This document shows positions 3,677-53,974 of a stretch of 64,000 nucleotides of DNA, piece by piece (position 1 is the stretch's first letter; each line of letters opens with the position of its first letter). The DNA is from an uncultured Candidatus Saccharibacteria bacterium (GTDB lineage Bacteria; Patescibacteriota; Minisyncoccia; Phycocordibacterales; GWA1-40-21), in the NCBI GenBank assembly GCA_964562105.1, contig CAZLRP010000001.1, forward strand, positions 2,949-66,948, written 5' to 3'. The notes beneath the pieces were generated by a model. That model saw only the letters and a program-made list of their open reading frames with translations. It had not been told where the DNA came from and did no database searches. The position numbers and the translations under genes are program-made.

Positions 3677-4879
3677 TTACGCAATTATTTTCGTTATAAC
3701 TCCAGAACCAACTGTCTTTCCTCCCTCTCTAATAGCAAACTTCTGTTTATTTTCCATAGCAACTGGAGCAACAAGTTTTACTTTGAAAGTAACTGTGTCT
3801 CCCGGCATAACCATTTCTACTCCTGTAGCAAGCGTAACGTCTCCCGTTACGTCAGTCGTTTTCATATAGAATTGTGGCTTGTAACCTGTAAAGAACGGCG
3901 TATGTCTTCCACCTTCCTCTTTCTTTAATACGTATACTTCAGCTTCAAATTCTGTATGCGGAGTAATGGAACCAGTTTTTGCCAACACTTGTCCTCTGTG
4001 CACATCTTCTTTCTTTGTACCACGAAGAAGAACTCCGGCATTATCTCCAGCTTGTCCTTCTTTGAGCTGTTTATTAAACATTTCTATACCGGTGATAGTT
4101 GTTTTTGATGTTGGTTTGATACCGACAATTTCAACTTCTTCTCCGATTTTTATTATTCCTCTTTCAATTCTTCCGGTAACAACTGTTCCTCTTCCTTCAA
4201 TTGAGAAAATGTCTTCAATAGGCATAAGGAATGGCTTGTCAACATCTCTTACTGGGATTGGTATATATGTATCAAGCGCGGTCATAAGGTCAGTAATACA
4301 TTTTGCACCTGCATCATCTGCTGTTTTTGCCTTTAGAGCTTCCGTAGCTGAACCCCTTATGATAGGAGCTTTTTCTCCATCAAAATTATATTTGGTCAAA
4401 AGTTCTCTAACTTCTGCTTCAACAAGATCCAAAAGTTCTGCATCCGGAACTAGGTCAACTTTGTTTAAGAATACTACTATCTTTGGAACCCCAACTTGGT
4501 TTGCCAAAAGAATGTGTTCTCTTGTTTGTGGCATAGGACCATCAACTGCTGAGACAACAAGAATAGCACCGTCCATTTGAGCGGCTCCTGTAATCATGTT
4601 CTTGATGTAGTCAGCGTGACCCGGACAGTCTACGTGAGCATAGTGTCTTGAGTCTGATGAATATTCAACGTGAGAAATAGCGATGGTAATGATTTTTGTC
4701 GCATCTCTTCTTCCAGCTGATTCTGAAGCTTTTGCGATTTGATCGTAAGCTTTTTCATTAGCCAAACCTTTGAGCGATTGCACGTGAGTAATCGCTGCAG
4801 TCAAAGTTGTCTTACCGTGGTCAATGTGACCAATTGTACCGACATTTACATGCGGTTTATCTCTTAAAAAATCTGCCAT
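3677..4879 (-). CDS. tuf: elongation factor Tu
   Basis: [28 protein letters not shown]-motifs; 400 aa. Confidence 0.97.
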
Positions 4880-10958: not shown

Positions 10959-11435
10959 CTATTTCTTTGCAGTAGTAGTCGTAGCCTGATCTTCCACATA
11001 TATTGGACCGACATTTACTATAATATTCCTTTCTGGTGAATATAATATAGCCTTGAGAGCTTTTTGATAAACAAGGATAACATCTCCATTTTGTGCGCCT
11101 TTATAAAATACTTGGTCTTTTATCAAAGCAGCCGCATCATTTATTACATTGACCACTGGATCTTCACCCGTCGGGAGAACTATGAGCTTACCTACTTTTG
11201 CAACAAGTTCTTTTACTTGGGCTTGTTCCATTTGGCTTGCTACATCAACCGAACTTTTTACTACATATTTATTCCATGAATAAAATGTTCCGGCTCCTAC
11301 CAACATTCCTATTACAAACCATGCGACAATTGGCATTAGTTTCTTTTTACCAATTTTGATATTTTCTACCATTTCCATAAATTTTATTTTGTCTATTATT
11401 TTATTAAAACAGGACACAAAAACTAACAAAAGCAT
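10959..11435 (-). CDS. hypothetical membrane-anchored protein
   Basis: single N-terminal TM helix, no motif. Confidence 0.4.
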   Translation of the reverse strand: MLLLVFVSCFNKIIDKIKFMEMVENIKIGKKKLMPIVAWFVIGMLVGAGTFYSWNKYVVKSSVDVASQMEQAQVKELVAKVGKLIVLPTGEDPVVNVINDAAALIKDQVFYKGAQNGDVILVYQKALKAILYSPERNIIVNVGPIYVEDQATTTTAKK

Positions 11436-11489
11436 TATACAGCATAATAAAAATAAATAAAACTTGACATTAAGTTGGCAATCTAAAAA

Positions 11490-12365
11490 CTATTTTTCTT
11501 CAATGATAGCCAAACCGCCAGAAATAAAAGAAATGTCTCCTAAATCATAAGTGATTAGCACTTTGCTTTTAATATCATTTAAAAAATCCAATATTTCTTT
11601 GTGTGGATGGCCATAACTATTATTTACTCCCGCAGAAATAACGGAGTATTCTGAATTAACGGCCGATAAAAATTCGGGAGAAAGAGAATTTTTTGACCCA
11701 TGGTGTGCAATTTTCAGCACATCGCTTTTTAATTCTGCTCCATCTGTTTTTGCCAGATATTCTAAAACATCAGTCGGCGCATCCCCAGTGAACATAAAAG
11801 TTGAATCCCCATAATAAAGCTCCGCCACGATAGAATATTTGTTTGTATCAGTTCCTTTTGGATTATTATTCGGATACAAAATTTTTAAATAAGCCCCGCC
11901 GCCAAGATCAAAAATTTTTCCCGTTCTCGCAATTTCTGTTTTTATATTCTTCTCCAAAATTTGATGCTCCAGTTCTTTGAAAGTTCCCGTGCTAGAAGTC
12001 GCTCCACTGCTTATGTATTTTCGAACGGAATAATTTTTAAAAACTTCGGGAATTCCTCCAATATGGTCTTGATCCGGATGAGTCACAAGAATCGCGTCTA
12101 TAGTCTTATCGTAAAAAGGCATTACCCTGCCCAGAGCATTTAAAATATTTTTATCCGGTCCCCCATCTATAAGAAGCTGATTGCCAATTGGCGATTCTAT
12201 AAAAATAGCATCGCCTTGGCCAACATCCAAAAATGAAACTTTTAAAACATTATTCCTGGTTTCGGCTACGACAGTATAAAAAATCATTCCGTTCACAAAA
12301 AGAAGCAGAGCCAAGAAATATATTTTTATTTTATTAAATTTAAACATTTTTTTGTATTGTGTCAT
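11490..12365 (-). CDS. ComEC-related metallo-beta-lactamase-fold domain protein (C-terminal module of ComEC as a separate ORF)
   Basis: LDVGQGDAIFIE...HPDQDHIGG MBL motifs after an N-terminal TM helix; the first ATG lies inside the GIY-YIG element's inverted repeat. Confidence 0.72.
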   Translation of the reverse strand: MTQYKKMFKFNKIKIYFLALLLFVNGMIFYTVVAETRNNVLKVSFLDVGQGDAIFIESPIGNQLLIDGGPDKNILNALGRVMPFYDKTIDAILVTHPDQDHIGGIPEVFKNYSVRKYISSGATSSTGTFKELEHQILEKNIKTEIARTGKIFDLGGGAYLKILYPNNNPKGTDTNKYSIVAELYYGDSTFMFTGDAPTDVLEYLAKTDGAELKSDVLKIAHHGSKNSLSPEFLSAVNSEYSVISAGVNNSYGHPHKEILDFLNDIKSKVLITYDLGDISFISGGLAIIEEK

Positions 12366-12718
12366 TCCCGCGCAGGCGGGAATCCAGTGTTAAATTATAA
12401 TTCTGAACTCAAATCTTTCCATTCTGGATTTTCTTTTTCAATCAACCTTCTTTTCCATAGCCTATTCCATCTTTTTATGCATTTTTCTCTTAATATCGCA
12501 CTTTCTATATCTGTTGTCTGTTCATAATATACAAGAGTTTTAACATTGTATTTTTTAGTAAAACCTTCAACTAAACAATTTTTGTGCTCATATACTCTTC
12601 TCAATAAATCGTTTGTAACTCCGATATACAATGTCCCATCACGCTTACTCGCTAAAATGTAAACATAATAATATTTCATGAAAAGATTATACTGGATTCC
12701 CGCCTTCGCGGGAATGAC
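12361..12718 (-). mobile_element. GIY-YIG family-1 element: 28-bp palindromic hairpins (GTCATTCCCGCGCAGGCGGGAATCCAGT) in inverted orientation flanking a GIY-YIG gene
   Basis: left hairpin 12361-12388, right hairpin 12691-12718; located between the two comEC ORFs. Confidence 0.7.
12395..12679 (-). CDS. GIY-YIG nuclease family protein (URI domain, YhbQ-like)
   Basis: YYVYILASKRDGTLYIGVTNDLLRRVYEH = GIY-YIG motifs; 94 aa; flanked by 28-bp inverted hairpins. Confidence 0.85.
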   Translation of the reverse strand: MKYYYVYILASKRDGTLYIGVTNDLLRRVYEHKNCLVEGFTKKYNVKTLVYYEQTTDIESAILREKCIKRWNRLWKRRLIEKENPEWKDLSSEL

Positions 12719-12723
12719 AAATA

Positions 12724-14247
12724 CTAAAGAGCTACCGGATAACTTTTTCTATTTTGATAAATAATCCAAATTCCAATGAAAAAATAATACGCGACCATTA
12801 TAGCAAATGAAAAAAACGTTATATTCGCAGTGGAAAATGGCAGATTCGCGAAAAATTCTGAAACATTAATCATATATGCAAGTAATATCCAAGAAATCCA
12901 TGCGAAAGGAAGCGCAAGTGGAAGCCAAATAAAGCCAAGTGTCCCAGTGATAAAACCAAAAAGCATTGTTGCAGGTATAAAAGCAATAACAAAAATATTT
13001 GCAGGCAACGCGACAAGCGATAGCAAGCCCATTTTATAAAGTATTAAAGGCAAGACTAATATTTGTGCCGAGATTGTTGATGCGATTATATCTCGCAAGC
13101 CGAATTTTTCTGTTATGAAACTAAATTTATTTTTAATAATTGGTGAAACATAAATTATTGCAACAGTCGCGAGAAAAGAAAGCTGAAAAGAAATATCAAA
13201 AACTAAAATTTTCGGATTTATAATTATCATTAATAATCCGGCCAGAACAAGAGCCCTGCCCGCTTGATAATTTCTATGAGTAACAGAAGCTAAGATAACG
13301 ATAAGCGCCATTATTCCCGCTCTTACAGCGGTTGAAGATGCACCCGACATAATTATAAAAAGAATTATACCAGTCACACCTCCAAAAAATCCGGCATTTC
13401 GCGGAAGAAAAGAAAGTATTTTCATTATTGCATTTGCTACGATTGTAATATTGTACCCGGAAAGCGCCACAATATGCGAAAGTCCGGCTTTGCGGAAAAT
13501 TTCGGTCGTGTTTACATCCATTGAACTTTTTGCGCCAAGCAATATACCGGAAAGCAACGGGGCTTCCGGCGCGCTAATAGTTTTATTTATATTGCCAATA
13601 AAAGAATTTTTAAAATTAAATAATAAATTTTTAATTACATTTCCATGCCTGCTAGAAATCAATTCGGTTTTTGCAAAATCAACTTTGTAATAAATATCAT
13701 CCTTTGCTAAATATGAAATATAATCAAACGTTGTAGATGAAATATTGTTTGAATTAGAAAAATTTTCTGGTTTTTCAAGTTTCCCTGAAATTTTTATTAG
13801 ATCTCCATATTTTAGTTCCGGATATAAGTCCGTACTCACAACTCCTTTGCCAGAAACATCAATACTGGAGTTTGCAATAACAATATTTTTAAAATCAACT
13901 ACCAGTATCGCCTGCTTATCTTTTCTTGTAGGTTCATCTGAAATTACACCCGCCAGAGAAATTTTATTACCAATATTGTTTTCCAAATTGAAGTCAAGCA
14001 TTTCTAAATCTTTTAATTCGTATCTGAATATTCCCAGAGCGAAAGAAAAAATAAAAATGGTTATCAGAAAAATTTTTTGACCACTTTCAATATCAACGAC
14101 AAAAAATTTTCTGAACAAAAATAAAATTATTGAAAGAAAAATCAAAAAAATAGAAAAAGTAACTCCGAATTTAAAAAATGAGCATAAAAAAATCGCCAAA
14201 ACAAAACCGATGATTGCTATTGCCAGTAAAGAATCCTTTTTCACCAA
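12724..14247 (-). CDS. comEC: ComEC/Rec2 competence membrane protein, N-terminal (DUF4131 plus competence) part
   Basis: 507-aa polytopic membrane protein with the ComEC competence-domain pattern; ends 2 bp from the GIY-YIG element's right hairpin. Confidence 0.68.
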   Translation of the reverse strand: MVKKDSLLAIAIIGFVLAIFLCSFFKFGVTFSIFLIFLSIILFLFRKFFVVDIESGQKIFLITIFIFSFALGIFRYELKDLEMLDFNLENNIGNKISLAGVISDEPTRKDKQAILVVDFKNIVIANSSIDVSGKGVVSTDLYPELKYGDLIKISGKLEKPENFSNSNNISSTTFDYISYLAKDDIYYKVDFAKTELISSRHGNVIKNLLFNFKNSFIGNINKTISAPEAPLLSGILLGAKSSMDVNTTEIFRKAGLSHIVALSGYNITIVANAIMKILSFLPRNAGFFGGVTGIILFIIMSGASSTAVRAGIMALIVILASVTHRNYQAGRALVLAGLLMIIINPKILVFDISFQLSFLATVAIIYVSPIIKNKFSFITEKFGLRDIIASTISAQILVLPLILYKMGLLSLVALPANIFVIAFIPATMLFGFITGTLGFIWLPLALPFAWISWILLAYMINVSEFFANLPFSTANITFFSFAIMVAYYFFIGIWIIYQNRKSYPVAL

Positions 14248-14310
14248 AATATTTTAGCATAAATTAAAACCCTAGCAGAATATACTGCTAGGGCTCAACC
14301 AAGAATGTTG

Positions 14311-14688
14311 TTAATTAGAAGTATGCTGATTCTCATAATGTATGAGTAGCCCAGAAATAAGAGTTATTCTGTAGCCATCAGCAACAATAGAAATCGAAAC
14401 AATCTTCTTGTTCGGAAATTGCTTTTCCCACATTCCCTTTTTTTTCATGATTGCTTTAATACGTTCATCAGTTCCACCCCCTGTATCAATCTTAATGTAG
14501 ACTGTACTTTGTTGATCGTCATAGATATCTTGATCTTGAGCCACATTTGCACTTGAATTTTCAAGTAAAGCCTTCTCTGCAAAGGAAATATATCTATTTT
14601 CCAAATTACCACTATTACCACAACATGTCAGGGTAAAACCACAAAACAGTATTGTAATTACTATGTAAGGTACTTTCATCTTCAACAC
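14311..14688 (-). CDS. putative lipoprotein
   Basis: signal peptide followed by LTCCG lipobox-like motif. Confidence 0.45.
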   Translation of the reverse strand: MLKMKVPYIVITILFCGFTLTCCGNSGNLENRYISFAEKALLENSSANVAQDQDIYDDQQSTVYIKIDTGGGTDERIKAIMKKKGMWEKQFPNKKIVSISIVADGYRITLISGLLIHYENQHTSN

Positions 14689-15546: not shown

Positions 15547-15589
15547 TGAAATGATAATACCATACGTTATACAAAATGAAAAAAGCATT

Positions 15590-15660
15590 GTCATCCCCGC
15601 GGAGGCGGGGATCCAGTATTAAATCAATTCATACTGGATTCCCGTTTTCACGGGAATGAC
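15590..15660. mobile_element. gene-less double-hairpin miniature of the GIY-YIG family-1 element
   Basis: GTCATCCCCGCGGAGGCGGGGATCCAGT + 15-nt spacer + ACTGGATTCCCGTTTTCACGGGAATGAC; same left-end spacer ATTAAAT as in the full element. Confidence 0.65.
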
Positions 15661-15670
15661 AATACAAAAA

Positions 15671-47764: not shown

Positions 47765-47810
47765 TGTCATTTCCATAATATATTGCTATTCCCGCGCAGG
47801 TAGAAATGAC
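47765..47810. mobile_element. degenerate solo copy of the family-1 hairpin
   Basis: GTCATTTCC...ATTCCCGCGCAGGTAGAAATGAC. Confidence 0.4.
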
Positions 47811-51134: not shown

Positions 51135-51195
51135 ATGCAATAACCGAGAAAATATAACAAGAAATTAACAAAAAGTCTATAGATAAACCTATGTT

Positions 51196-51346
51196 GTCGT
51201 TCCCGCGCAGGCGGGAATCTAGGTTGAGTTCAATTAATTCTGGATTCCCTTCTTACAGAAGCTGTACACCTTTCACATTTTGATTACAAAACGTTCAAGG
51301 TCTTGCGGAAGCAAAAACTTTTGCTTCCTCACCTCCGCGGGAATGA
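51196..51346. mobile_element. family-1 double-hairpin element with ~95-bp internal insert
   Basis: GTCGTTCCCGCGCAGGCGGGAATCTAGG ... CCGCGGGAATGACAG; internal hairpin GGAAGCAAAAACTTTTGCTTCC is related to hairpins at 25132 and 26768. Confidence 0.55.
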
Positions 51347-51362
51347 CAGACTCACTGCCCTT

Positions 51363-52259: not shown

Positions 52260-52838
52260 TTACGAAACATGAACAAACCCACAATTAGGAAGCCATTCTT
52301 TGGGAGGTTTGTTTAATTTCAATGCATTCACCCAACGAGTGCCTTGAATGTACGAGAAACCTGACTCTTCATGCATAGATACAATCCTCGAAAATCCCAT
52401 TTTTTCTGTTCCATCTTCCTTGAGAATTTTCCAGATATGGCATGTTGTTTCTAGATTTGAAATGCCAAAATCACTTTTGTCATCCAAGACTTCAGCGATT
52501 TTAGCATTGTAAAACCTTCCTTTCGGACCAGGTTTATAATCACGAGACAACAGTGCTTGTCTTGCAAGGGGTCCTATTAGAATATCGTTGAGATCAAAGT
52601 ATGTAACCCATGCTTCGCCCGACCAACCATTTAATTTATCTGCGACATGAACTATACCACTTTCTCTATGCCACTTGCTCTCATGAACAAGCCCGGGAAA
52701 CTTTCCTTGAAGCGCAAGCTTGAGAAACTTTTCCAAAATATTCGGATCATAAGGGTAATCACGGTGCACGACTTGATCTCTGAGCTCCATTATGTATGCC
52801 TCGAGCTCTCTTTTTTGGATATCTGGAATATTGCTCAT
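52260..52838 (-). CDS. hypothetical protein
   Basis: 192 aa from MSNIPD; no motif. Confidence 0.45.
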   Translation of the reverse strand: MSNIPDIQKRELEAYIMELRDQVVHRDYPYDPNILEKFLKLALQGKFPGLVHESKWHRESGIVHVADKLNGWSGEAWVTYFDLNDILIGPLARQALLSRDYKPGPKGRFYNAKIAEVLDDKSDFGISNLETTCHIWKILKEDGTEKMGFSRIVSMHEESGFSYIQGTRWVNALKLNKPPKEWLPNCGFVHVS

Positions 52839-52974
52839 AATAATACTCCTTTCGTAAGTTTTTATTAAAGAAATTCTGTATTCATTGTACACCCGTAACA
52901 TCTGCGTGCAAGAATAGACAAAACCCTCGAAAAGCTACGAAATAGATAGATTTTTTAGATTTTTATGATCAAAT

Positions 52975-53775: not shown

Positions 53776-53832
53776 AATTAATGTGATATTTAGTATACAG
53801 TTATAGCATAAGAAAATCAAAAACAAAAAATT

Positions 53833-53903
53833 GTCATTCCCGCGGAGGCGGGAATCCAGTATTAATTCAATTCAACACTAGATTCCCGCCTCCGCGGGAA
53901 TGA
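53833..53903. mobile_element. gene-less double-hairpin miniature of the GIY-YIG family-1 element
   Basis: GTCATTCCCGCGGAGGCGGGAATCCAGT + 18-nt spacer + TAGATTCCCGCCTCCGCGGGAATGAC, between rsmE and clpP. Confidence 0.65.
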
Positions 53904-53974
53904 CACGATAAGATGGTTGCTTTCAATTAATTTTTGATATATCCTTGAATTGTCTTTAATAATTTAATTGGTTA

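Follow-up and report, generated by a model that had tools for sequence, protein, structure and literature searches.

We analyzed a 64,000-nt stretch of DNA (hereafter the window) from an uncultured Candidatus Saccharibacteria bacterium (GCA_964562105.1, contig CAZLRP010000001.1, positions 2,949 to 66,948), in which a short gene for a GIY-YIG nuclease, ssn, is enclosed by two hairpin-forming repeats and lies between the two open reading frames (ORFs) of comEC. The cassette is very probably an Ssn/NTS module, the repeats being of the type known as Neisseria Transformation Sequence (NTS) or SRM, residing in a Patescibacteria (Paceibacterota-like) genome. Comparison of related loci shows that the hairpin–ssn–hairpin unit, some 360 bp long, is a self-contained module: it is found at several junctions between genes, close relatives have gained or lost it, and it decays.

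The ssn gene (12395–12679, minus strand) encodes a 94-aa protein that matches the Pfam GIY-YIG domain over residues 3–76 (E 5.9e-14) and contains no further domain; it is co-oriented with both comEC ORFs. The original prediction, made from the window sequence before any comparison, had described this gene as bracketed by two palindromic 28-bp copies, all of which are present: they lie at 12361–12388 (GTCATTCCCGCGCAGGCGGGAATCCAGT on the plus strand) and 12691–12718 (ACTGGATTCCCGCCTTCGCGGGAATGAC), are reverse complements of each other, and are each palindromic. At the 5' end of the gene, the terminal hairpin (12691–12719, minus strand) reads TGTCATTCCCGCGAAGGCGGGAATCCAGT on the gene strand and is followed, 2 nt further on, by TATAAT and then by the ssn start, while the hairpin on the 3' side (12360–12388, plus strand) is the inverted copy, TGTCATTCCCGCGCAGGCGGGAATCCAGT on the plus strand. 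As single-stranded DNA, each window hairpin folds (-8.9 kcal/mol, z ~ -4.1) into a stem of 8 bp capped by a loop of 4 nt, and the hairpin pattern occurred seven times in the 64 kb, compared with 0.00 expected from dinucleotide-preserving shuffles. The same 5'-side end structure was found in six of the related loci compared with the window, which are labeled here by L-numbers (L001, L092, L093, L100, L109, and L111). No Rfam family matched the window hairpins, and NCBIfam contained no specific model for the protein. Promoter and terminator scans at the cassette returned nothing above the shuffled expectation, and the terminator scan, covering 11400–14400, placed no terminator at the hairpins. 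A sigma-70 promoter composed of hairpin and TATAAT was also considered, and was dropped on account of the 23-nt spacing between TTGTCA and TATAAT.

The Ssn family was described by Chenal et al. (Nat Commun 2025, PMC11893778) as hairpin-specific single-stranded DNA nucleases acting on the NTS, defined as CGTCATTCCCGCGMAVGCGGGAATCYRG. SsnA is a 94-aa single-domain GIY-YIG protein of CDD type cd10448, which binds the NTS solely as single-stranded DNA, and cleavage takes place a few nucleotides 5' of the repeat, in one orientation only, with no activity on double-stranded DNA or RNA (PMC11893778). The biochemistry was established for four homologues, those of Neisseria and Wolbachia among them; mutation of Y6, Y17, or E64 in Neisseria meningitidis SsnA abolishes cleavage, the C after the NTS stem is the position most important for binding, and extensions of the loop do not block cleavage (PMC11893778). 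With family membership set at blastp E < 1e-10, 71% of the homologues in that study are accompanied by repeats, and in 42% the repeats flank the gene at either end (PMC11893778).

We compared the window protein with the N. gonorrhoeae SsnA orthologue, which was recovered from a chromosome catalogued as a plasmid and stood in for N. meningitidis SsnA. The two proteins are of equal length (94 aa) and share 51 of 85 aligned residues (60%; 112 bits, pairwise E 5e-39, tblastn E 5e-28), and the gonococcal residues Y6, Y17, and E64, whose counterparts were found catalytic by mutagenesis in N. meningitidis, correspond in the alignment to Y7, Y18, and E65 of the window protein. By contrast, the match to BH0048 (1zg2), a UPF0213/YhbQ-type protein that is likewise a small stand-alone GIY-YIG domain of ~100 aa, reached 20.8 bits (E 0.003), and the label "YhbQ-like" given to the gene originally is not retained. 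Six window copies matched the NTS consensus with 1–3 mismatches (25–27 of 28 positions; 0 expected), including the two flanking ssn at 12360–12387 and 12692–12719 with 1 mismatch each. The consensus consists of the NTS/dRS3 core ATTCCC-N8-GGGAAT with the 5' flank CGTCAT and the 3' flank C-Y-R-G, and the only systematic departure of the six copies from it is at the first position (position -1), which is C in Neisseria and T in the window. Judged by its sequence, the protein is a member of the Ssn family, presumably of the cd10448 type given its homology to SsnA, and every defining feature of the Ssn/NTS system that can be read from DNA is present in the window. Because that study, published in 2025, had already reported the NTS–ssnA–NTS architecture and likened it to an insertion sequence and to REP/RAYT (PMC11893778), the element is not the "previously unrecognised" one that it was first taken to be. 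In the paper's main text, the word Patescibacteria does not occur (PMC11893778).

Gene-less and degenerate forms of the repeat were found elsewhere in the window, which holds about nine NTS-type copies in all; none of these forms is assigned to a strand. Two inverted NTS separated by a 17-nt spacer lie between a cupin gene and rnhA (15589–15661), and a second such doublet occupies the divergent clpP–rsmE spacer (53832–53905), confirming the gene-less pairs predicted near 15590–15660 and 53833–53903 and giving spacers of 17–18 nt. The latter doublet (53830–53907) can fold as one long hairpin (-34.9 kcal/mol, z -13). A third doublet, between holA and the tRNA-Lys promoter (51195–51347), is interrupted. 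Here the original prediction, which placed a copy with an insert of ~95 bp at 51196–51346, was right about the extra DNA, but the insertion measures 81 nt (51250–51330), splits one of the hairpins instead of extending the spacer, and carries two small hairpins of its own. A degenerate relic, GTCATTTC ... GAAATGAC, was confirmed at 47765–47810 in the trmH–doxX spacer.

To examine the distribution of these forms, syntenic loci of relatives were compared site by site, and presence or absence was polymorphic at all four sites examined in this way (the comEC junction, treated below, the clpP–rsmE and holA–tRNA-Lys spacers, and the region upstream of rnhA). Among 80 related holA loci from metagenomes, 72 (~674 kb in all) contained no NTS whatsoever, including L012, which spans 20.7 kb and has 91% holA identity. 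The clpP–rsmE spacer was empty in L012, L024, L025, L032, L036, L037, and L042, held a doublet in L020, was reduced to a collapsed relic in L018, and in L109 contained a full cassette exactly at the site of the window doublet, with an Ssn 84% identical to that of the window. The holA–tRNA-Lys spacer was empty in eight loci (L012, L016, L017, L022, L027, L030, L031, and L033); L013 and L023 had intact doublets there, and L045 and L048 retained relics. Upstream of rnhA, an orthologous doublet was present in L004 and absent in L005, L003, and L001, L004 and L005 being 90% identical in nucleotide sequence over 5.6 kb. The trmH–doxX spacer was empty in most relatives, carried a doublet of a variant stem family (GTCATTGCGAGG...TCGCAATCCAGG) in L015, and was reduced to a collapsed solo hairpin in L071.

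The cassette also recurs as a unit in unrelated gene contexts. A single metagenome-assembled genome (MAG; GCA_036171775.1) contained two full cassettes, one at the comEC junction (L092) and the other flanked by a NUDIX gene and a Wzy-type gene (L093). The ends of the two cassettes agree (t-GTCAT...CCAG-TATAAT...ATG...stop...CTGG...ATGAC-a), and the Ssn proteins that they encode share 87% identity. The same flanking hairpins accompany homologues 73–78% identical in a type IV secretion system (T4SS) locus of a Taylorbacteria genome, between Dus and ClpB, between kdsA and kdsD of Thermodesulfobacteriota, alongside a reverse transcriptase/Avd pair, and within an island that also contains a recombinase and a Tn7 TnsA-like gene. 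Ssn homologues 73–78% identical occurred in Omnitrophota, Scalindua, Chloroflexi, and Thermodesulfobacteriota, compared with ComEC identities of ~60% already within the clade; from these sequences, the similarity of Ssn across phyla points to horizontal transfer, to very strong constraint, or to both. Taken with the polymorphism at the four sites and the L109 cassette at a doublet site, the MAG with two loci supports the earlier proposal of a mobile unit accompanied by internally deleted derivatives.

Several of these contexts merit description in their own right. In L111 (2778–5086), the reverse transcriptase/Avd pair beside the close Ssn homologue possibly belongs to a diversity-generating retroelement; the island in L113 (1930–8288) includes a methyltransferase besides the TnsA-like gene and recombinase; and the homologue in L094 (2243–6254) lies within the T4SS gene cluster, where L095 and L097 add a second, frameshifted ssn copy. 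The contexts of eight other homologues rule out comEC as a general target of Ssn cassettes. In L100 (3925–3990), the upstream hairpin bears an enlarged nested stem-loop in its loop, GTCATTCCCGCC[38 nt]GGCGGGAATCCAG; this nested loop and the interrupted copy of the window suggest that the hairpin loop tolerates or attracts insertions.

Next, we examined the anatomy of the repeat. Position -1 was T in 55 of 56 non-redundant copies and positions further out were variable, placing the end of the unit 1–2 nt beyond GTCAT. Stem cells were paired in 98.3% of cases, and 18 compensatory double changes were distributed over four of the eight pairs, values that none of 500 shuffles reached for either measure; the copies had been chosen by a fuzzy consensus match, which favors paired copies and makes the pairing value too high. 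From Neisseria to Patescibacteria, the unpaired flanks (GTCAT and CCAG) show as much conservation as the stem. On this sequence pattern, the hairpin appears to be under selection.

An alternative account of the hairpins would treat them as ordinary terminators, attenuators, or mRNA-stabilizing REP-like structures, with a static housekeeping GIY-YIG gene located between two of them by chance. The hairpins are indeed stable, GC-rich in an AT-rich genome, and all intergenic, and some stand at gene 3' ends, for example after holA and after the N-terminal comEC part. However, they are followed by no T-run, the terminator scan was silent at them, and copies occur within the divergent clpP–rsmE promoter spacer and directly before start codons. 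The conservation of unpaired flanks to the same degree as the stem, the association of the repeats with ssn across phyla, and their absence from the orthologous sites of most relatives likewise argue against this account, which we consider very improbable.

The gene-less forms can be arranged in a series that would describe decay of the module. Doublet spacers begin with the 'CCAGTAT' found at the 5' end of the cassette and end in sequence resembling the last ssn codons, the stop, and the downstream bases; read directly over the last ssn codons, the cassette has GAATTATAATTTAACAC and the doublets have GAATTGATTTAATAC or TAATTCAATTCAACAC. These spacers fit an internal deletion of the ssn ORF, as far as sequence comparison can indicate. 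Doublet spacers at different loci are closer to each other than to the cassette, a resemblance suggesting that the elements spread in the doublet form. The stem halves of a single doublet are direct repeats ~45 nt apart, and a deletion between them would yield the solo form GTCAT-stem-loop-stem-ATGAC. L094 has a perfect example of this form, and degenerate ones occur in L045, L071, and L018 and as the window relic. The decay path would then run from cassette to gene-less doublet by internal deletion, to collapsed solo palindrome, and finally to nothing. By analogy with the characterized enzymes, the solo form should be inert, because it lacks the C after the stem that is needed for Ssn binding.

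We then asked how the cassette relates to comEC. ComEC is a single polypeptide in model bacteria. In the window, an N-terminal part with Pfam DUF4131 and Competence domains (12724–14247, minus strand) and a metallo-beta-lactamase (MBL) part (11490–12347, minus strand) each match their own segment of TIGR00361; neither is part of the element, which lies exactly between the Competence and MBL parts. The N-part stop codon was measured 5 nt from the right hairpin, correcting the 2 bp given before. Both the single polypeptide of model bacteria and the exact position of the cassette would suit an insertion that split an intact comEC. For comparison, nine related loci from species-representative genomes were used, along with three retrieved through Ssn homologues. 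Like the window, each of the 10 distinct relatives had comEC as two ORFs; the ComEC/Rec2 form, one polypeptide with DUF4131/OB, Competence, and MBL domains, was found in none. Five relatives with neither ssn nor hairpin at the junction (L003, L004, L005, L008, and L010) have the comEC parts in different frames with overlaps of 8 to 29 nt, the overlap in L003, L004, and L005 being the 8-nt ATGTTTAA; ComEC identity to the window is 67–77% for L003, L004, L005, and L008 and 41% for L010. In the more distant L011 (33–37% ComEC identity), the two ORFs are 2 nt apart. In addition, the MBL ORF has its own conserved hydrophobic N-terminus, MFKF..IKIYFL.

Since relatives without ssn (these five and L011) already have two ORFs, the cassette did not cause the split, and its insertion into an intact gene is extremely improbable. 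The original prediction had implied that the cassette divided the gene, and had itself named a comEC split at the same point in relatives lacking the nuclease gene as the finding that would count against it; this is the arrangement observed throughout. Judging from these sequences, the two-gene comEC is ancestral in the clade and the cassette sits in a pre-existing gene junction, making the "split comEC" of this clade a genuine two-gene arrangement and not a disruption. Fusion of the two ORFs by programmed frameshifting was considered and set aside, there being no obvious slippery site and the window ORFs lying ~360 bp apart.

Occupancy of the comEC junction varied among relatives. It was filled with ssn and hairpins in the window, L001/L002, and L092, and empty in L003, L004, L005, and L008. 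In L007 (9530–9960), it contained an Ssn 63% identical to that of the window together with a different, matching stem of the GTCATTGCGAGG...TCGCAATCCAGG family, the flanks GTCAT and ATCCAG being kept; from its sequence, this variant looks like co-variation of nuclease and hairpin. L009 had two canonical NTS and no gene. In the ComEC tree, the filled L001 and the empty L003 are 89% identical, and L007, with the variant, and L009, with canonical hairpins only, are 90% identical.

These data also bear on whether the placement is functional, that is, whether ssn is co-expressed with the DNA-import channel to meet incoming single-stranded DNA, with selection or targeting keeping Ssn-type elements in the comEC operon. 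Five of nine in-clade junctions are occupied by Ssn-related repeats, which fall into three types (canonical ssn, a variant ssn whose hairpins covary with it, and hairpins alone), a count from a small sample of phylogenetically related and hence non-independent genomes. The shared orientation of ssn and the comEC ORFs and the published link between SsnA and transformation (PMC11893778) are in line with such a role. On the other side, close Ssn homologues occur in many other contexts, the L092 genome has its second copy elsewhere, four in-clade relatives have no ssn at the junction, and the cassette brings its own TATAAT. On balance, a functional placement seems quite unlikely.

How might such a unit move? 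Inferred from the Neisseria and Wolbachia homologues, the window Ssn would bind the hairpin in single-stranded DNA by reading its asymmetric flanks, GTCAT 5' of the stem and a C directly 3' of it, and, following the published homologues, would nick a few nucleotides 5' of the repeat. The GTCAT ends of the window cassette and doublets point outward, so that the predicted nicks fall at the outer boundaries, one per strand, and these positions are where similarity between copies ends. Because GIY-YIG enzymes hydrolyze DNA without being able to rejoin it, the placing of a copy at a new site must depend on replication or repair by the host or on recombination following DNA uptake. We tentatively propose that Ssn/NTS units could be active self-propagating mobile elements with a 94-aa hydrolytic GIY-YIG nuclease specific for single-stranded DNA as their sole protein. 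Nicks at the outward hairpin ends, in replicating or transforming DNA, would seed copying into new intergenic junctions by way of the repair or replication machinery of the host. The cassette would pass from phylum to phylum, and its recurrence at the comEC junction would reflect a link to DNA uptake. As a whole, we regard this proposal as rather unlikely.

A number of points weigh against the mobile-module reading. GIY-YIG enzymes form no covalent intermediate, and Ssn alone is incapable of strand transfer. The 56 flanks revealed no target-site duplication and no target consensus beyond the T at -1 and a general T-richness. Filled and empty alleles are 85–92% identical in nucleotide sequence, the closest pairs lying at about 90%, with gain not separable from loss, and alleles may be exchanged by homologous recombination or transformation instead of transposition. 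Additional flanking sequence is often common to the filled alleles of a site, which fits common descent followed by deletion. The cleavage position assumed for the window Ssn is extrapolated from N. meningitidis, and the published enzyme cuts one repeat orientation, which gives one nick per strand and not excision (PMC11893778). The outward geometry is not universal either: the repeats of gonococcal ssnA face inward, with GTCAT toward the gene.

The main rival reading holds that the repeats never transposed. They would be old and vertically inherited, lost by deletion, and carried between lineages only when natural transformation is followed by homologous recombination of flanking DNA, in the manner of the Neisseria NIME arrays and 'minimal mobile elements'. 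Ssn would then be no mobility enzyme but a domesticated factor of the host, restricting or shaping how incoming single-stranded DNA recombines. The limits of GIY-YIG chemistry and the extra flanking sequence shared by filled alleles speak for it, as do intergenic sites that also vary for unrelated inserts, for example L022 and L033–L040 at clpP–rsmE. N. meningitidis SsnA lowers transformation by NTS-containing DNA ~5-fold (PMC11893778), and Patescibacteria are naturally competent (PMC10633639). Inheritance and loss accommodate less readily the two cassettes at unrelated loci of one genome, the identical-ended cassettes in unrelated gene contexts of several phyla, and the different SRM subfamilies at the same junction in L007 and L009 despite 90% identical ComEC. 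The doublets with related spacers at three unrelated window loci require some non-homologous spread. We rate inheritance and loss as a serious possibility that nevertheless falls well short of being probable.

The window element shares with the Neisseria system a near-identical hairpin, repeats on both sides of the gene, and an excess of repeats over ssn genes (PMC11893778). It differs in copy number, pathogenic Neisseria having hundreds of NTS, compared with ~9 in the 64-kb window and none nearby in most relatives. It also differs in repeat orientation, the repeats being outward here, as in the other phyla examined, and inward around N. gonorrhoeae ssnA (L115, NZ_CP119140.1 1881687–1883141), which has NTS on both sides with the GTCAT ends facing the gene. 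The allelic series of empty, cassette, doublet, and solo forms shown here is not part of that account in its accessible portion (PMC11893778). The core ATTCCC-N8-GGGAAT is that of dRS3, and intergenic clusters of repeats, as in L001 and L092, recall the dRS3/NIME arrangement of Neisseria; in contrast to those arrays, the host is another organism, and neither RS-type units between repeats nor filamentous-phage integration were seen at the loci compared here.

Resemblance extends to REPIN/RAYT and REP/BIME systems (Bertels and Rainey 2011, PMC3116915; Nunvar 2010; Ton-Hoang 2012), in which a small gene is likewise flanked by cognate hairpins, inverted gene-less doublets can fold into a long hairpin, recognition is of single-stranded hairpins, and all copies are intergenic; L001 even has a doublet adjoining its cassette, a feature of the REPIN type. 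The enzymes differ, RAYT being an HUH/Y1 tyrosine transposase and Ssn a hydrolytic GIY-YIG nuclease to which the cut-and-rejoin chemistry of RAYT and IS200/IS605 is unavailable. A further difference is the high similarity of Ssn proteins from different phyla, which suggests horizontal transfer. By analogy, Ssn/NTS may be said to resemble REPIN/RAYT functionally without being a member. Terminal inverted repeats of ~28 bp, one small internal gene, and deleted derivatives that keep both ends are also found in insertion sequences and miniature inverted-repeat transposable elements, unlike which the module has no recognized transposase fold and has terminal repeats that are each palindromic; no target-site duplication was seen in the 56 flanks. 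With GIY-YIG homing endonucleases (I-TevI, I-BmoI, and free-standing phage enzymes), Ssn shares the catalytic domain and an association with mobile DNA, but it has neither a DNA-binding domain nor a linker and is not set in an intron or intein, and its recognition sequence lies on the element itself, not on the empty allele as in classical homing. A homing endonuclease was rejected as an identity for the window protein, which is a single 94-aa domain with best phage-record matches of ~33–39% identity.

The Ssn family and its hairpin partner had been published, and the core of the present finding is not new. What is added is comparative evidence for a gain-and-loss or mobile module, mobility having been raised only as a hypothesis in the 2025 paper, and a suggested decay pathway drawn from a cassette, doublet, and relic series that resembles REPIN/RAYT. 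The comparison also extends a nearly unchanged Neisseria repeat to the Patescibacteria, a group known to be naturally competent. If self-propagation were true, Ssn/NTS would be a mechanistically new counterpart of REPIN/RAYT.

For genome annotation, a practical consequence is that gene calls pick up false start codons from the hairpins, and in L009 a false stop codon as well. The AATGAC/GTCATT hairpin ends lengthen the calls of the MBL gene (12363–12365) and rnhA (15592–15594): the CAT triplet of the 3'-side hairpin is the spurious first ATG of the MBL ORF, whose call reaches 12365. The hairpin-supplied in-frame ATGs noted at the outset upstream of these two genes are thus present in the sequence, but they are not genuine starts, the proteins of relatives beginning with MKKD... 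for rnhA and MFKF... for the MBL ORF. In L009, a hairpin furnishes the stop codon (TGA, 2223–2225) of the ComEC N-part.

Additional repeats and variable segments were observed near the doublets. The 81-nt insertion at 51250–51330 represents a second short structured repeat family with the motifs CTTACAG(G/A)AGCTGTACAC ... CTTGCGGAAGCAAAA-loop-TTTTGCTTCC; no Rfam family matched it, and partial copies lie in L035 (3240–3340), L012 (2740–2810), L040 (16160–16420), and L100 (300–450). Another hairpin, CCTGCCCGAATGAC...GTCATTCGGTCGGGCGGG, was found by or in the tRNA-Lys downstream of holA (L034/L035, ~4100–4330; L019, ~900–1050; L091, 1150–1520), where it interrupts a partial tRNA copy and is followed by a more divergent GIY-YIG ORF (42% identical to Ssn in L091); by its sequence, it may represent a second such element family with a tRNA target. 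More generally, the clpP–rsmE–holA region behaves as an insertion hotspot, with variable inserts such as those of 0.5–1 kb in L022, L033, L034, L039, and L040. Between rsmE and holA, the window itself has a 213-aa ORF (52260–52901) with no counterpart there in most relatives, in which rsmE and holA are often adjacent. Finally, two 2.17-Mb N. gonorrhoeae records in the plasmid collection proved to be chromosomes labeled as plasmids.

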